The notes under the pieces were generated by a model. The model did no database searches and had not been told where the DNA came from. It saw only the letters and a list, made by a program, of their open reading frames with translations. From a virus (lineage: Duplodnaviria > Heunggongvirae > Uroviricota > Caudoviricetes): a DNA stretch of 18,887 nt. Numbering within the stretch: position 1 is the first letter of the stretch; each line of letters begins with the position of its first letter. Of the stretch, positions 1 to 18,887 are shown piece by piece. Position numbers and translations under genes: made by a program. Location: IMG/VR virus record IMGVR_UViG_2778261087_000008, one strand, 5' to 3'.

Positions 1-2391
1 TTACTTCACATCATCCGGCAGCGCATAAGCCACAATATAGTCGCCCATCTTCGTACCAAATGAACCGTGACCGCCTGCGGAGATCACCACATACTGCTTA
101 CCATTCACTTCATAGGTCATTGGCGTAGCCTGACCACCCGCTGGTAAACGACCCTGCCACAGTTTTTCACCGTTGCTCATGTTGTAAGCGCGCAGGTAGT
201 TATCTGCCGTAGCGGCGATAAACAGCACGTTACCCGCCGTGGAGATTGGCCCGCCCAGCATCGGCATACCCATATTGAACGGCACCGGTACAGGCATCGG
301 GAACGGCATACTGTCCTGCGGCGTACCAATACGTTTCTTCCACACCACTTCATTGGTTTTCAGATCCAGCGCCGAGATATAACCCCATGCTGGCTGTTTA
401 CATGGCAGACCAAACGGTGAGAGGAACGGGTTGAGCGTGACACCATACGGTACACCGTACTGTGGCTGAATGCCGGATTCCGTACCCGTGCCTTTGGCAT
501 CTTTCGGCTGCTCCATCGGGTTACCAGGACCACGCGGGATCAGTTTCGAAACAAACGGCAGTGCCATTGGGTTGGCAATCGCCACTTCACGATTTGGATC
601 AACGGAAATCCCGCCCCATTCGAACATCCCCAGGTTACCCGGGAAGACCAGCGTACCCTGTTCAGATGGCGGGGTGAAAATGCCTTCATAGCGCATCTGG
701 TGGAACATCACGCGGCACACCAGTTGGTCAAACATGGTGGCTCCCCACATATCCGCACCGCTCAAATCTTTCGTCGGACGGAAGCTCAGTTCCGAGAATG
801 GTTGAGTAGGGGTAACGTAATCGCCTTTGGCAGCACCTTGGGGAACCGGTTTTTCCGGTGCCGGAACCACCAGTTCGCCATTACGACGATCGAGCACAAA
901 AATGTTGCCGGTTTTCGCCGGAGCGTAAATAACTGGCACTTTCTGACCATTAACGGTGATGTCCGCCAGCGTCGGCTGTGCCGGAAGATCCATATCCCAC
1001 AGGTCGTGGTGAACGGTCTGGTAGCTCCACGCCAGTTTCCCGGTAGTGGCATTCAGCGCCAGAATCGAGCTGGCATAACGTTCCTGTTCCGGTGTGCGGT
1101 TACCGCCCCAGATATCCGGCGTGGTCACGCCCATCGGCAGATACACCAGATCCAGCTTCGCGTCATAGGCCGCTGGTGCCCACGAGTTTGGCGAGTTAAA
1201 GGTAAAGGTGTGTTCGTCAGACGGGATTGCGTTCGGATCTTTCGCGCCGGGATCAAAAGCCCACAGCAGCTCCCCGGTGTTGACATCAAAACCACGGATC
1301 ACGCCAGACGTTTCGCGGGTTGAGAAGTTATCGGTAACTGAACCGGCCATCACGATGGTTTTATCGGTGATAATCGGTGGCGAAGTCGGTTCATACAGAC
1401 CCGGTTTGGTGTCTGGCATATTGCTTTGCAGATTGAGCACGCCTTTATTGGCGAAGGTTTCGCACAGTTTGCCGTTTTCAGCGTTAATCGCAATCAGTCG
1501 ACCATCATTGACCGGAAGAATGATACGACGCGGGCAATCCGCCATCACTTCCGGCGAAGCCGTTTCTGCTTTGGCTTCATGATAAGAGACGCCACGGCAG
1601 GTTACGTGCTGGAAAGACTCGTTAGTTTTCAGCTCAGGATCGTAATGCCATTTCTCTTTGCCGCTGGCGGCATCGAGCGCAAACAGGCGCTGGTGAGCGG
1701 TACACAGGTAAAGGGTGTCGCCCACTTTAATCGGCGTCACTTCATTGGTGATTTCGCCCGGATCGTTCGGCTGCTTCACATCGCCAGTACGGAACACCCA
1801 GGCTTCTTTCAGATTATGGACGTTATCGGCGTTAATTTGTTTCAGAGGTGAAAAGCGTTGACCTTCCTGATTGCGACCATAGGCAGGCCAGTCCTGATCG
1901 GCAACGGGTGAGATAGCTTCCGCAGGTGTGGCATTGGCGCTTAAGGTGCCGTTGATTTCCTGCGGATCGTTAAATCCGGCCCAGGTCAGGATACCACCGC
2001 TAATCAGTAGTGCCACCACCAGTGCGGCAACTGCGCCGCTGGCAGGAATGACCAGGCGACGCCAGACAAACGGCAGGATCAGCCAGATGCCGAAGAAGAC
2101 CAGAATGTCGCTGCGCGGAGTCAGCGCCCAGAAGTCGAAACCAACTTCCCAGACGCCCCAAATCATGGTGCCGAGCAGCAGGGCTGCGTACAGCCAAAGC
2201 GCGGCACGTTTACTGCGCCACAGCATCCAGGCGACGCCGAGCATCACAAGACCAGCGATAGGGTAGTACCAGGAGCCGCCAATCGCGACCAGCCAGCCTC
2301 CGCCAATGAGTAGATACAGCCCGCAAAGCGCTGCAAAAAGGGCTGTTAGCGTGACGAGTAATCGTCGCGAGCCTGTATTGTTAATTGCCAT
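1..2391 (-). CDS. gcd: PQQ-dependent membrane-bound glucose dehydrogenase (quinoprotein)
   Basis: Minus-strand frame beginning MAINNTGSRRLLVTL with an N-terminal multi-helix membrane anchor followed by a long soluble region; 796 aa plus stop equals 2391 nt; stop codon is tta at 1-3 on the plus strand. The track ORF (1..2409) starts 6 codons upstream of the recognised start. Confidence 0.93.
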   Translation of the reverse strand: MAINNTGSRRLLVTLTALFAALCGLYLLIGGGWLVAIGGSWYYPIAGLVMLGVAWMLWRSKRAALWLYAALLLGTMIWGVWEVGFDFWALTPRSDILVFFGIWLILPFVWRRLVIPASGAVAALVVALLISGGILTWAGFNDPQEINGTLSANATPAEAISPVADQDWPAYGRNQEGQRFSPLKQINADNVHNLKEAWVFRTGDVKQPNDPGEITNEVTPIKVGDTLYLCTAHQRLFALDAASGKEKWHYDPELKTNESFQHVTCRGVSYHEAKAETASPEVMADCPRRIILPVNDGRLIAINAENGKLCETFANKGVLNLQSNMPDTKPGLYEPTSPPIITDKTIVMAGSVTDNFSTRETSGVIRGFDVNTGELLWAFDPGAKDPNAIPSDEHTFTFNSPNSWAPAAYDAKLDLVYLPMGVTTPDIWGGNRTPEQERYASSILALNATTGKLAWSYQTVHHDLWDMDLPAQPTLADITVNGQKVPVIYAPAKTGNIFVLDRRNGELVVPAPEKPVPQGAAKGDYVTPTQPFSELSFRPTKDLSGADMWGATMFDQLVCRVMFHQMRYEGIFTPPSEQGTLVFPGNLGMFEWGGISVDPNREVAIANPMALPFVSKLIPRGPGNPMEQPKDAKGTGTESGIQPQYGVPYGVTLNPFLSPFGLPCKQPAWGYISALDLKTNEVVWKKRIGTPQDSMPFPMPVPVPFNMGMPMLGGPISTAGNVLFIAATADNYLRAYNMSNGEKLWQGRLPAGGQATPMTYEVNGKQYVVISAGGHGSFGTKMGDYIVAYALPDDVK

Positions 2392-2510
2392 AAAGAGACA
2401 CCATTTCAATTCATTAATATTTTAGTAGCAATTAATTATAGGTTTTAACATGTGTGATCGTCATCACAATTCGAGCTTTATTAACAGATTCCGCGAATGA
2501 ATAGTTTTAC

Positions 2511-2519
2511 TGGTATACT
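2511..2519 (+). promoter_or_regulatory. Candidate extended -10 element (TGgTATACT) in the gcd-hpt intergenic segment, rightward; possibly the native hpt promoter now pointing into the island
   Basis: tggtatact at 2511-2519 fits TGnTATAAT at 5 of 6 hexamer positions plus the TG; no convincing -35. Hand-read only. Confidence 0.25.
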
Positions 2520-2596
2520 GCGTGTCTTGCGCTTTGTTGCGGTGCCAAAACCTGCCCGTGCGAAGTGATTTGTTTTTAAATCATATGGTTAGAGAT

Positions 2597-2615
2597 ATGA
2601 AACATACTGTAGAAG
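2597..2615 (+). repeat. attL core (hpt start-codon remnant)
   Basis: atgaaacatactgtagaag; matches the hpt start at 18351-18369 at 18 of 19 positions (c vs t at position 11). Lies 205 bp after the gcd start codon, which is where I recall the hpt ATG sitting in K-12. Continues as a 15-codon remnant ORF MKHTVEAKNFVFSCF ending at 2644. Confidence 0.7.
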
Positions 2616-2741
2616 CAAAAAACTTCGTGTTTTCATGCTTTTAGATGATTTCGTGAAATCTCCATTTTGATTTTTATTATCAGTAAGATACGATTGTTTT
2701 TGTTCGTATGTTTATGCGTTTTTTTCGACTGTAGCAACGAA

Positions 2742-2787: not shown

Positions 2788-4011
2788 ATGGCTGGCACAA
2801 ACAAACTGAGCGACAAAAAGCTAAAAGCATTGCTGGGTTCTGAGCGTGAAGCGCCGATCATGATTGCCGATGGTGAGGGGCTAAGCGTTAAGGTCTCGAA
2901 GCAAGGTAACGTTAGCTGGGTATTTTCATACCGGTTGGGAGGAAGGGGTAGCAAACTCGAACGTTTAACGCTTGGCCGTTACCCTGATATGCCGCTAAAA
3001 CTTGCGCGAGAAAAGCGGGAACAGTGTCGCCAGTGGCTGGCTGGTGGGCTTGATCCGAAAACTGAGATTGAGCTGAGCACAGAAGAAACGCTTAAGCCTG
3101 TAACGGTTAAAGACGCCCTGGAATATTGGTTGGTGAATTACGCCAGGAGAAAGCGCAGTGATGAGGCGTTGGTGAGGGCGCAGCTACGCAAGCATATTTA
3201 CCCGCGCCTTGGTCGTTATCCGATCACCAGATGTGAAACCCGCCATTGGGTGGCCTGTTTTGACGAAATAAACCAGACTAAACCCATGACCGCCGGCCGC
3301 ATGTTCCAGATTTCTAAACAGGCGTTACGTTTCTGCAAGGTTCGCCGTTATGCTGCCAGTGATGCTCTGGCCTTTCTCACCATTCAGGATGTAGGCCAGC
3401 CATCTGGTCAACGTGATCGCGTATTGTCAGATAGCGAGCTGGCTGATGTGTGGCGCTGTACAGATAGCGATGATCAGCAGCCGTATTATTCACGTCTGCT
3501 CAAAATGCTGGTGCTTTTTGGTGCGCGAACGATGGAAGTTCGCCTTTCTCGATGGTCAGAGTGGGATTTTACATCGTGGATTTGGACTGTACCGAAAGAG
3601 CATAGCAAAACCCGAGAGAAAATCGTGAGGTCGATACCTGAAGCTATACGCCCGTGGCTGGAAGAGTTAAAGCGCGAGACAGGGAAAACAGGTTTGTTAC
3701 TGGGCGAAGATCGTACCCGTCAGGCTGTATCATTGAAAGGGCGCAGGCTTTTTAAAGATTTTCACCATAACGAGCCGTGGACACTTCACGATCTGCGTCG
3801 GACGTTTTCTACGGGGCTAAACAATATGGGTATAGCACCGCATATAGTCGAGCTGCTGTTGGGCCATGCCTTGCCGGGAGTTATGGCGATTTATAACCGT
3901 AGTCTTTACTTACCGGAGAAGCTGGACGCGCTGAACAAGTGGTATGACCGCTTAGAACTTCTCGCGGGTAATCACTCTAATATCGTTATTTTAAAGGCTG
4001 GTGAAAAATGA
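2788..4011 (+). CDS. int: Tyrosine site-specific integrase (P4-like phage integrase family)
   Basis: 407-aa ORF next to the left attachment site; C-terminal catalytic region contains HDLRRTF and LLGHALPGVMAIYNRS, consistent with the R..H-x-x-R..Y signature of tyrosine recombinases. Confidence 0.9.
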   Translation: MAGTNKLSDKKLKALLGSEREAPIMIADGEGLSVKVSKQGNVSWVFSYRLGGRGSKLERLTLGRYPDMPLKLAREKREQCRQWLAGGLDPKTEIELSTEETLKPVTVKDALEYWLVNYARRKRSDEALVRAQLRKHIYPRLGRYPITRCETRHWVACFDEINQTKPMTAGRMFQISKQALRFCKVRRYAASDALAFLTIQDVGQPSGQRDRVLSDSELADVWRCTDSDDQQPYYSRLLKMLVLFGARTMEVRLSRWSEWDFTSWIWTVPKEHSKTREKIVRSIPEAIRPWLEELKRETGKTGLLLGEDRTRQAVSLKGRRLFKDFHHNEPWTLHDLRRTFSTGLNNMGIAPHIVELLLGHALPGVMAIYNRSLYLPEKLDALNKWYDRLELLAGNHSNIVILKAGEK

Positions 4012-4811
4012 GAATTAGCCACAAAAAAGATTTGCCAACATGGTTTGATTTAGATAACTACACTCAATTTATTGGCATGTCAGATAAAGACTTATTTTAT
4101 CAGTTGGTTGTTAGATATGACATGCTTGAAAACTTCTATCGATATGGCGGGTCTTTTTATAATGAACCTCTTACAAATAACGATGAAGTAGGAAGGATAC
4201 TTGGAAATGGCGCGGTCGCTAATGCGATTGATAGAGCTACGTACTTCTATGATGCGTTTAAACTTCCTATTAAAAGAGAAGGTGTTTTGTCTGGTGGGGT
4301 TGCGTTACGACCAATGTCCATTGAAGACTTTATTTATATGAAAGATGCTGTAGATAATTATATGGAAAATAATTTTACGGGAACGGCTGAAAATTTAGTT
4401 TACCATTCATTTACAAGTGTTAGCTCATTTTTGGAACCAAATGACCTTTTTATTAAAGTTGATTTGTCACGCCCGGATGATTTATTGATTGATGTGTTTA
4501 AAAAAAACCTCAAGAATTGGCGTGAGGAATTAAAAATAAAAGAAAAGGAAAAAACATACCAGTCATGGGAAACAATTAAAAAAAAGGTATACGATTATTC
4601 ACTTTTCCCCGTAGTTGATTTGATGATCTGGGCTAAATCTCGCGGGGCATGCGTCACCAATGGCGTGCTTGCTGTGGCTGTGTTTCCGAACGGAGAGTAT
4701 GACTCAACGCAGATAGCGCAAACCGTAAAGCCAAATATAGAAAAAATCTTCTCAATTTCTTCTATAGAAAAAATCAGGTCAGAACTTCAGGATAGAAAAA
4801 TTCTTCCTTAA
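4008..4811 (+). CDS. Hypothetical protein, AT-rich cargo gene of unknown function
   Basis: 267-aa ORF whose ATG overlaps the int stop (ATGA at 4008-4011); sampled 60-bp lines give roughly 30% GC versus roughly 55-58% in the packaging module (approximate hand counts); no motif I can recognise. Confidence 0.75.
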   Translation: MRISHKKDLPTWFDLDNYTQFIGMSDKDLFYQLVVRYDMLENFYRYGGSFYNEPLTNNDEVGRILGNGAVANAIDRATYFYDAFKLPIKREGVLSGGVALRPMSIEDFIYMKDAVDNYMENNFTGTAENLVYHSFTSVSSFLEPNDLFIKVDLSRPDDLLIDVFKKNLKNWREELKIKEKEKTYQSWETIKKKVYDYSLFPVVDLMIWAKSRGACVTNGVLAVAVFPNGEYDSTQIAQTVKPNIEKIFSISSIEKIRSELQDRKILP

Positions 4812-4845
4812 TCTTGGTGGTCAAAACAATTTAATTTTCGTCTAG

Positions 4846-4862
4846 TGTGACATCCAATCACA
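4846..4862. promoter_or_regulatory. Inverted repeat TGTGA-N7-TCACA upstream of the alpA-like gene (candidate operator)
   Basis: tgtgacatccaatcaca; perfect 5-bp arms; resembles the CRP half-site pair but with a 7-bp rather than 6-bp spacer. Confidence 0.3.
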
Positions 4863-4906
4863 AGGATAACAATAGCCCCCACAAACTTAGAAACAGTGGA
4901 GGCAAC

Positions 4907-5191
4907 ATGCAAATTATCACCTTTACCCCGCCAAATCCTGAACAACGCCGCACCATTCTGGAGGAGTACGGCTTCAAGTTCGATCGCCGAATCCGCGAAG
5001 ATGAATGCAGCGAGATCACCAGTCTTTCTCGTTCGAGCCGCTGGAAGATGGAACAGCAGGGGCGCTTCCCGCCGCGCTGTCACTTTGGCCGCAACAGCTG
5101 TGCCTGGCTTCTTTCGGATGTGCTCTGGTGGGTTCGTAATCCGCCTGCCGTGGAAAACGTCAATAACCCGTACAGCCGCAAATCTGCTTAA
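4907..5191 (+). CDS. alpA: AlpA-family transcriptional regulator / excisionase-like DNA-binding protein
   Basis: 94 aa from the ATG at 4907, preceded by GGAGG at spacing 6; region ITSLSRSSRWKMEQQGRFPPRCHFGRNSCAWLLSDVLWWV matches the AlpA helix-turn-helix pattern (S.S..W......G.FP.......R...W...DV..W). The track ORF starts 20 codons earlier at 4847. Confidence 0.75.
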   Translation: MQIITFTPPNPEQRRTILEEYGFKFDRRIREDECSEITSLSRSSRWKMEQQGRFPPRCHFGRNSCAWLLSDVLWWVRNPPAVENVNNPYSRKSA

Positions 5192-6622: not shown

Positions 6623-6826
6623 ATGAGAAATCATACCACACACCCGCAAGGGCGGGACTCGCACAACCTGAATAAATACATCTGGCGTTTTATCGCCCTG
6701 AGCACGGCACAACCGCGCGTGATTACCATTGAGGCCACCAGCGAACAGGAAGCACGCCAGCAATCCCCGGCTGGCTGCGTGATGGTATTCGCCGCCCGTA
6801 TTCGTCAGGGGGTGTGCCATGCCTGA
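6623..6826 (+). CDS. Small hypothetical protein (67 aa), first gene of the rightward operon
   Basis: ATG at 6623 preceded by GAGG; stop overlaps the start region of the next ORF (6819), suggesting translational coupling. It is the 3' portion of the long track ORF 5834..6826, whose upstream part is judged spurious. Confidence 0.4.
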   Translation: MRNHTTHPQGRDSHNLNKYIWRFIALSTAQPRVITIEATSEQEARQQSPAGCVMVFAARIRQGVCHA

Positions 6827-18262: not shown

Positions 18263-18286
18263 CCGTATATCACTCGGTGTATCACT
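18263..18286 (+). repeat. Repeat ccgtatatcact + cggtgtatcact, candidate integrase arm-type binding sites (right arm)
   Basis: Shares 19 consecutive bp (tatcactcggtgtatcact) with 2747-2765; 64 bp upstream of the attR core. Confidence 0.5.
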
Positions 18287-18350
18287 TTTAGCTAAAATGC
18301 ATGGCGTGTTTGTTAATTTAACTGATTAAAATCAGTGGGATATAAAGTTT

Positions 18351-18369
18351 ATGAAACATATTGTAGAAG
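18351..18369 (+). repeat. attR core (first 19 nt of hpt)
   Basis: atgaaacatattgtagaag; direct repeat of 2597-2615 with one mismatch. Confidence 0.7.
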
Positions 18370-18887
18370 TAATGATCCCCGAAGCGGAGATTAAAGCGCG
18401 TATCGCCGAACTGGGTCGTCAGATTACTGAGCGTTACAAAGACAGCGGCAGCGATATGGTGCTGGTTGGTCTGCTGCGTGGCTCATTTATGTTTATGGCG
18501 GACCTGTGCCGTGAAGTTCAGGTATCTCATGAAGTCGACTTTATGACCGCCTCCAGCTACGGTAGCGGCATGTCCACCACCCGTGATGTGAAAATCCTCA
18601 AAGATCTGGATGAAGATATCCGTGGCAAGGACGTGCTGATTGTTGAAGATATCATCGACTCGGGGAATACACTGTCGAAAGTGCGTGAGATCTTAAGCCT
18701 GCGCGAACCGAAGTCGCTGGCGATTTGTACGCTGCTGGATAAACCGTCCCGTCGTGAAGTGAACGTCCCGGTTGAATTTATCGGTTTCTCGATCCCGGAT
18801 GAGTTTGTGGTGGGTTACGGCATTGATTACGCACAGCGTTACCGTCATCTGCCGTATATCGGCAAAGTGATTCTGCTGGACGAGTAA
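18351..18887 (+). CDS. hpt: Hypoxanthine phosphoribosyltransferase
   Basis: 178-aa [25 protein letters not shown]... with PRPP-binding motif [14 protein letters not shown]; complete, ends taa at 18885-18887. Confidence 0.93.

Follow-up and report, generated by a model that had tools for sequence, protein, structure and literature searches.

The int-adjacent gene and its DUF6387 product

The DNA analysed here (IMG/VR virus record IMGVR_UViG_2778261087_000008, 18,887 nucleotides, referred to below as the window) carries, between a tyrosine integrase gene (int) and a gene for an AlpA-type regulator (alpA), an open reading frame (ORF) of 267 aa that starts with ATG, occupies positions 4008–4811 of the + strand and encodes a protein of the DUF6387 family. 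According to megablast, the window is a chromosomal region of Escherichia coli, and the island within it is, by its gene content, an E. coli satellite of the capsid-forming phage-inducible chromosomal island (cf-PICI) type. The gene of interest and its immediate surroundings are made up of the following features.

2788–4011, + strand: tyrosine integrase gene, 407 aa, the first gene of the island (domains Arm-DNA-bind_3, Phage_int_M and Phage_integrase; RefSeq annotation in locus L001)
4008–4011, + strand: ATGA, overlap of the DUF6387 start codon with the int stop codon (read from the sequence)
4008–4811, + strand: DUF6387-family gene, 267 aa (ORF, Pfam PF19924, conservation profile, AlphaFold2 model)
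4812–4867, + strand: cassette-specific 3' flank, probably with part of the alpA promoter region (blastn break-points)
4875–4903, + strand: hairpin, GCCCCCAC, 13-nt loop, GTGGAGGC (RNAfold -10.2 kcal/mol, z = -2.8 for the window)
4907–5191, + strand: gene for an AlpA-type helix-turn-helix (HTH) regulator, 94 aa (RefSeq coding sequence, L001 18508–18792)

The identity and the anatomy of the gene are close to certain. The protein matches the Pfam family DUF6387 (PF19924) along its full length (E value 2.3e-29, 103.2 bits against a gathering cut-off of 28.9), with residues 2–249 aligned to positions 3–249 of the 258 positions of the model. An identical protein, WP_016236857.1, is already named 'DUF6387 family protein' in RefSeq, and the same annotation is found on it in 12 complete E. 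coli genomes. A preliminary description of the window, made from its letters only, had given the 267-aa ORF and the overlap of its ATG with the int stop codon, both of which are exact, and had pointed to a lysine-rich segment, KNLKNWREELKIKEKEKTYQSWETIKKK, which is present at residues 166–193. The gene is no orphan, as it is already catalogued and so is no new entity, the function of DUF6387 being uncharacterised. Furthermore, the preliminary description had considered that a clear match to a characterised family would speak against an undescribed function; our profile search did find a catalogued family, yet an uncharacterised one, so this part of the proposal was left standing. In the literature library searched, two papers mention DUF6387, in gene tables (PMC10763509, PMC9964261), with no function, structure or experiment given, and we found in it no functional data for the homologue in EARL-type islands (SEN1999 region) or for the gene occupying the same slot in published PICIs.

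The family is a large one. A profile search of 1.84 billion cluster representatives revealed 1300 homologous clusters (50% identity) with E <= 1e-3, of which 452 reached E <= 1e-10. With few exceptions these homologues are single-domain proteins of 250–310 aa, no additional Pfam domain or domain fusion was found in the longer members, and the named members belong to Escherichia/Shigella, Klebsiella, Serratia, Yersinia, Proteus, Aeromonas and Acinetobacter. The ratio of nonsynonymous to synonymous substitution (dN/dS) was ∼0.2 in the only pair that was not saturated. The full-length Pfam match, the 1300 clusters and this ratio show that the ORF is not a chance one. Other collections added little: NCBIfam contains no matching family, none of the defence models of PADLOC-DB v2 matched the protein at E <= 1, so that it does not belong to a known anti-phage family of that database, the sole match in PHROGs is a weak one to the unannotated family phrog_23422, and a word-indexed homology search with a 98-sequence profile gave no relatives beyond PF19924.

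In the alignment of these 98 sequences only D204 is invariant, while P10, F13, Y18, R36, L168, R172, L205, W208 and P227 are nearly so. No conserved pattern of His, Cys or Glu residues was found in it, which makes it unlikely that DUF6387 is an enzyme. The conservation profile is high in residues 1–45 and 151–255 and low in residues 46–135, and the protein can be divided into three parts, namely a conserved N-terminal part (∼1–45), a variable acidic middle (∼46–150, with an isoelectric point (pI) of 4.5) and a conserved, basic and helical C-terminal domain (∼151–262, pI 8.9), the pI of the whole protein being 5.4. No transmembrane segment was predicted. AlphaFold2 with the deep alignment returned an all-alpha model with a predicted local distance difference test (pLDDT) of 90.4 and a predicted template modelling score (pTM) of 0.84, superseding an earlier and poor model made from a 23-sequence alignment (pLDDT 61). 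With this model Foldseek found no match in the PDB or BFVD, and sequence-profile searches against solved structures with the 23- and the 98-sequence profiles gave nothing credible; fold matches to OmpR/PhoB-like winged helices are weak. The preliminary description had recognised no catalytic or DNA-binding motif, in agreement with our searches, in which none was detectable by sequence. All these data describe a soluble, all-alpha and apparently non-enzymatic protein.

Two other ideas about the gene were discarded. The direct repeats TATAGAAAAAATC at its 3' end were considered as operators and rejected, as they are explained by a conserved peptide repeat, xLEKI occurring twice, which is also found in distant homologues. 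Identity with an excisionase or recombination directionality factor (RDF) was likewise rejected, because these are small (∼60–100 aa) and basic winged-helix proteins and the DUF6387 protein has 267 aa and a pI of 5.4; it is the AlpA-type gene next to it that corresponds to such a protein.

Position, coupling and exchange of the cassette

We surveyed the gene context of about 60 loci in hosts that range from E. coli to Aeromonas and Acinetobacter, judging the gene order wherever the flanking sequence was sufficient for it. At every such locus the order is int, DUF6387 and alpA on one strand. This trio is present in six GTDB genomes (Xenorhabdus, Tenebrionibacter, two Yersinia, Enterobacter and Edaphovirga) and in contigs that carry distant members of the family, from Serratia, enterobacteria, Acinetobacter, Aeromonas and metagenomes. 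In 39 satellite-sized IMG/VR contigs, int lies upstream in 27, the others beginning inside or at the gene, and alpA lies downstream in 38. The trio is also found in the circular Klebsiella pneumoniae 'plasmid' pKp_Goe_795-4 (L027 in our survey, CP018459.1, 16,971 bp). This record was deposited as a non-mobilizable plasmid and contains int, DUF6387, AlpA, helicase, capsid and terminase genes; judging from these genes, it is evidently the circular, excised form of a cf-PICI.

Among the carriers the replication module varies between a DUF927 primase and an AAA_25 helicase, and the head module between an HK97 capsid and a ClpP-capsid fusion, so the int-DUF6387-alpA trio is the constant part of a mosaic. 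The order DUF6387 and then AlpA has also been reported for the EARL-type island ICEKp258.2, where the two genes lie at the end opposite int (PMC10763509), and for a Serratia island of another type (PMC9964261). By tblastn, 50,697 phage records contained one 1.8-kb fragment with DUF6387, and 72,556 plasmid records contained the circular satellite alone; the family is thus virtually absent from phage and plasmid records. The preliminary description had assigned the gene to an integrase-proximal accessory slot and had proposed a survey of synteny in related islands. The gene does lie directly after int, where the literature locates the accessory and immune genes of PICIs, and in the survey the order was kept throughout, so that the gene is much more bound to its position than ordinary cargo.

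The translational coupling of the gene to the integrase gene, which had been proposed from the ATGA overlap, is borne out by its conservation in most of the loci examined: of 14 non-duplicate loci, 12 retain the 4-nt overlap, as do 27 of another 31. In the most distant lineages, those of Aeromonas, Acinetobacter and one metagenomic lineage, a gap of 63–311 nt separates int from the DUF6387 gene. A sigma-70-like promoter is predicted ahead of int (2653–2680), and none is predicted within int on the + strand. With the ATGA coupling and no promoter inside int, DUF6387 should be translated from the int message. Moreover, the island is inserted next to hpt, and the intact upstream region of hpt faces int; with this arrangement, int and DUF6387 could plausibly be read from the captured housekeeping promoter while the island is integrated.

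The gene has diverged together with int, and faster. The pairwise identities of int and DUF6387 are correlated (Spearman 0.83 over 78 pairs, which are not independent), and the nonsynonymous divergence (dN) of DUF6387 is 2.5–4 times higher than that of int in the same pairs (0.25–0.49 vs 0.10–0.13). In IMG/VR locus L032, int and alpA are 94% and 96% identical to those of the window, DUF6387 only 33%. At the DNA level, blastn similarity between the window and its sister islands ends at 3974–4062 and resumes at 4868–4902, and these break-points coincide with the int stop codon and with a point 40 nt before alpA, from which it follows that the exchanged unit is the ORF plus ∼55 nt. Sister islands with no DNA similarity across this cassette have int and alpA genes that are 86–94% identical. 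The cargo-like behaviour suspected in the preliminary description is therefore real in the sense that the gene is swapped as a cassette between a conserved int and a conserved alpA.

Islands at the same site, between gcd and hpt, whose integrases are 92–94% identical, carry unrelated genes in this slot. The slot gene of L002 (7615–8364) encodes an orphan protein of 249 aa, and a second slot family, of 262–309 aa and belonging to PHROG 7144, is found in L003 (7715–8503), L024 (6715–7539) and L026 (6710–7639); the corresponding stretch of a further sister island at this site, L025, starts at 6776. None of these alternative genes has a Pfam or PADLOC match, and neither hhalign nor Pfam bore out an impression, gained by eye, of an AlpA-like HTH at the start of the L003/L024/L026 family. 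The occupants of the slot seen here in satellites are always a single gene of ∼250–340 aa. In one same-site island an int gene 86–88% identical at the DNA level runs straight into a bacteriophage exclusion (BREX) system (BrxR + BREX). The slot between intA and alpA of the K-12 cryptic prophage CP4-57 is occupied by the gene of YfjH (L023 4145–5101), a protein of 317–318 aa, which unlike DUF6387 has its gene on the opposite strand and which gave an hhalign probability of 0.3%. No homology of DUF6387 to the alternative slot proteins or to YfjH was detected.

Recombination can also cut within int. Strain QL57EC has a second island at the yhdJ site (L071, NZ_CP172108.1 450950–453353), in which the 3' third of int, DUF6387 and alpA are 97.5% identical to the window; the 5' part of its int differs, which indicates recombination inside this gene. 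The gcd/hpt island of the same strain carries an L002-type gene, so that two co-resident satellites have different cassettes.

The cassette is AT-rich. The GC content of the DUF6387 gene is 35.6% (32% at third codon positions, GC3), whereas int has 50.2%, alpA 54.7% and the remainder of the island 51.7%. The contrast noted in the preliminary description is thus real, but its hand counts, of about 30% against the mid-50s, exaggerated both values by a few points. At 45 of 45 loci the DUF6387 gene lies below its own int (minimum difference 0.079), with mean GC contents of 0.362 for DUF6387, 0.499 for int and 0.488 for downstream genes. The deficit relative to the neighbours is 8–20 points across hosts of very different GC content, the extremes being Xenorhabdus (0.29 vs 0.38 for int) and Aeromonas (0.46 vs 0.59), and the unrelated slot genes of the sister islands are equally AT-rich (0.33–0.38). 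Because all loci are AT-rich despite a co-divergence with int that reaches down to ∼30% identity, the low GC content is a trait of the family and not a sign of recent acquisition by this island. The earlier interpretation of this feature as the mark of a separately acquired cargo gene does not stand, as every DUF6387 gene is 8–20 points below its flanks.

On its downstream side the cassette is bordered by the hairpin at 4875–4903, which has the Shine-Dalgarno sequence of alpA, GGAGG, within its 3' arm; the ATG of alpA is at 4907. When homologous upstream regions (loci L002–L069) were folded sequence by sequence, 33 of 36 unique ones had z < -2; the arms vary and stay complementary (CCTCCAC/GTGGAGG, CCCTCAC/GTGAGGG, GCCCTCG/CGAGGGC, GCTCTCG/CGAGAGC and GACCTCG/CGAGGTC), and in many versions a T-run follows. 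The hairpin has no match in Rfam. It would shield alpA from int-DUF6387 transcription, either by termination or by masking of the ribosome-binding site, or alternatively it could be a palindromic operator. The idea that this inverted repeat is an operator of DUF6387 itself was rejected, as the repeat follows the type of alpA and also accompanies cassettes without DUF6387. At the edge of the cassette, ∼45 nt upstream of the alpA start, there is in addition a palindrome, TGTGA-N7-TCACA, followed by GGATAACAAT (4846–4872); these could possibly be an operator or CRP-like site and the -10 element of an alpA promoter.

Possible functions of DUF6387

The gene combines two sets of features. Cassette turnover, replacement by unrelated genes, BREX in the same slot, low GC content, fast evolution and a location regarded as accessory or immune in work on PICIs are cargo-like, whereas confinement to int-alpA modules, deep synteny, coupling to and co-divergence with int, rarity in phages and plasmids and a slot that in satellites was always filled by a single gene are core-like. 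Such a combination is reminiscent of immunity or specificity determinants, for example Stl, the diverse repressors of the Staphylococcus aureus pathogenicity islands (SaPIs), or lambdoid immunity regions, and less so of generic defence cargo; going by this context, we tentatively favour the reading that DUF6387 is a non-enzymatic binding protein tied to the int-alpA switch, an immunity-type determinant, which we regard as somewhat short of probable. According to this, DUF6387 would be made together with Int while the island is quiescent in the chromosome, transcription coming from the int promoter (Pint) and probably also from read-through of the hpt promoter. As a binding protein, it could dock with its conserved N-terminal and basic C-terminal parts onto a shared component, which may be DNA close to alpA or to att, or else the machinery of Int and AlpA, possibly by means of a degenerate winged helix. 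The fast-evolving acidic middle could then recognise a variable partner, such as a protein of the helper phage or of a rival satellite. In this way DUF6387 might act as the determinant of an 'immunity region', governing the timing of the alpA switch or what is able to trigger it, or excluding competitors.

The likeness to Stl lies in the adjacency to int, the size of ∼250–270 aa, the diversity between related islands, the presence of conserved and variable parts and the production, presumed for DUF6387, in the quiescent state. The N-terminal HTH of Stl is clear, and its gene and the lytic operon are transcribed divergently. DUF6387 differs from it in having no HTH detectable by sequence and in being co-directional with alpA, its gene sharing a strand with int, with alpA and with every gene downstream. 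Lambdoid immunity regions likewise show sharp break-points round a diverged cassette, a resemblance that concerns the evolutionary pattern only and implies no homology.

Several observations weigh against this immunity-type role. No DNA-binding domain is detectable in DUF6387 by sequence, and the inverted repeat before alpA tracks the type of alpA and not that of the cassette. Int and alpA genes that are 92–96% identical occur with unrelated cassettes and, because such near-identical genes accompany them, neither int nor alpA needs a specific DUF6387 partner. EcCIMP1 is inducible although its slot holds only a small unrelated ORF, and one E. coli carrier out of 12, CFS3292 (L072 1421–2223), has the gene split by a 1-nt indel into 110 + 165 aa, through a natural frameshift or else a mistake in the assembly. 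Moreover, the Gram-negative PICIs have been described as controlled by the AlpA activator without a repressor (PMC6092414), and the 5' location that the literature gives for the immune systems of PICIs (PMC11364771) fits a defence function equally well.

Such a function is the closest alternative, although we consider it somewhat unlikely: DUF6387 would be an autonomous single-gene anti-phage or anti-helper cargo, placed in the 5' accessory hotspot and independent of int and alpA. It would be expressed constitutively along with int, a phage protein would be recognised by the variable middle, and infection or assembly would be blocked. Accessory and immune genes are described as lying either at the 5' end or in the interval from int to the regulator (PMC10085698, PMC11364771), and the PICI 5' accessory and immune genes of Fillol-Salom and Penades, as cited in these two papers, share with DUF6387 the place, the single-gene format, the AT-richness and the swapping. 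The BREX system that directly follows a closely related int gene at the same site points in the same direction, and in other int-alpA islands Gabija, restriction-modification (RM) systems or dynamins are found right after int (PMC12595487). Cassette turnover, unrelated alternatives, low GC content and fast evolution would all fit with a defence gene, and non-enzymatic single-protein defences such as Tai are known (PMC11364771). However, neither DUF6387 nor the alternative slot genes match any PADLOC model, and DUF6387 was seen only in int-alpA modules, whereas the satellite defences known so far, Tai among them, also occur in prophages and in further hotspots; in this DUF6387 is unlike the Tai-type defences, as it is not found in phages or other hotspots and co-diverges with int. 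A deep, co-diverging and int-coupled association would be unusual for defence cargo, and the expression that results from coupling to int is expected to be low for a defence gene.

It is improbable, in our opinion, that DUF6387 is instead an accessory factor of Int that shapes att complexes, direction or site choice and is kept at a fixed ratio to Int by the coupling. The ATGA overlap is mostly kept, identity correlates with that of int, the cassette travels with the 3' (catalytic) part of int in the hybrid island of QL57EC and, in EARL-type islands, the DUF6387 gene stands beside the RDF gene and an att end, all of which would be expected of such a partner. However, integrases that are 92–94% identical at the protein level work beside unrelated genes, the overlap gives way to gaps of 63–311 nt in Aeromonas, Acinetobacter and one metagenomic lineage, the DUF6387 gene of EARL islands is at the end opposite int, and an RDF-like role is already filled by AlpA. 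Finally, that an AT-rich spacer of ∼0.8 kb is what has been selected, for example as an H-NS-bound silencer of alpA, with the protein being of minor importance, would agree with the 8–20 point GC deficit and the low GC3 of every slot occupant and with the one natural frameshifted copy, but it is very improbable given a protein conserved over 1300 clusters with a dN/dS of ∼0.2 and a confident fold, and a mere spacer would keep neither the ORF nor the 4-nt coupling.

The immunity-type reading can be taken further, into a proposal that we put forward as speculative and rather unlikely in its full form. DUF6387 and its unrelated replacements of 250–310 aa, perhaps including YfjH, could be the missing immunity or sensor determinants of these islands, that is, DNA or AlpA binders of new folds which would hold alpA off until freed by a helper protein, and which would thereby define helper range and satellite exclusion, the hairpin before alpA serving as a second safety layer. 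How helper phages switch on Gram-negative PICIs has been described merely as the helper activating alpA, and the satellite genes expressed in quiescence are poorly known. A large, int-coupled, fast-evolving and cassette-swapped family is a cheap and well-defined experimental target in this respect. If DUF6387 is a defence, an immunity determinant or an Int partner, a function would be gained for a sizeable DUF that neither the PDB nor BFVD matches; if it is dispensable cargo, the finding is an ordinary one. What is new in this work is the family-wide picture of position, coupling, composition, rate, cassette behaviour and a fold without PDB or BFVD match.

The host island at gcd/hpt

Of 5426 complete genomes, that of strain DAX4 and 11 others have an identical island between gcd and hpt; E. 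coli D8 and KSC9 are further carriers. It contains the tyrosine integrase with its arm-binding domain, DUF6387, the AlpA-type HTH protein, ORF6N, Icd-like and DUF4222 proteins, a DUF927 primase and a single-stranded DNA-binding protein (SSB) for replication, and, for head formation and packaging, an HK97-type capsid, prohead protease, portal, connector, HNH and the small and large terminase subunits (TerS and TerL). No tail or lysis genes were found among the island genes by Pfam and RefSeq annotation. An int gene at one end, AlpA, a primase, its own head, TerS and TerL genes and a size of ∼15 kb are what defines a cf-PICI at the sequence level, and this architecture matches the one described in a preprint (10.1101/2022.09.08.507074). 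The AlpA-type gene is the master activator of Gram-negative PICIs (PMC6092414), and the AlpA homologue of L002 matches the Pfam family Phage_AlpA.

The alignment with K-12 covers window positions 2166–2618 and starts again at 18350–18619, so that the island ends at 2619 and 18349 and is ∼15.7 kb long. The same alignment revealed at the two ends a 23-nt imperfect duplication, 21/23 identical, over the first codons of hpt.

2596–2618, no strand assigned: left attachment-site core copy, within the first codons of hpt (K-12 alignment)
18350–18372, no strand assigned: right attachment-site core copy, with the intact hpt starting at 18351 (K-12 alignment)

The complete gcd-hpt intergenic region (2410–2596) and a remnant of 15 hpt codons (2597–2644) point into int, and an intact hpt is restored at the right end, where island DNA precedes it. 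It may be that hpt is now read from an island promoter, and int and DUF6387 from the promoter of hpt. Just inside both ends of the island there are tandem copies of (C)GGTGTATCACT (2742–2765 and 18264–18286), within which a 19-nt repeat is exact (2747–2765 and 18268–18286), and these copies are candidate arm-type integrase sites on either side of attP.

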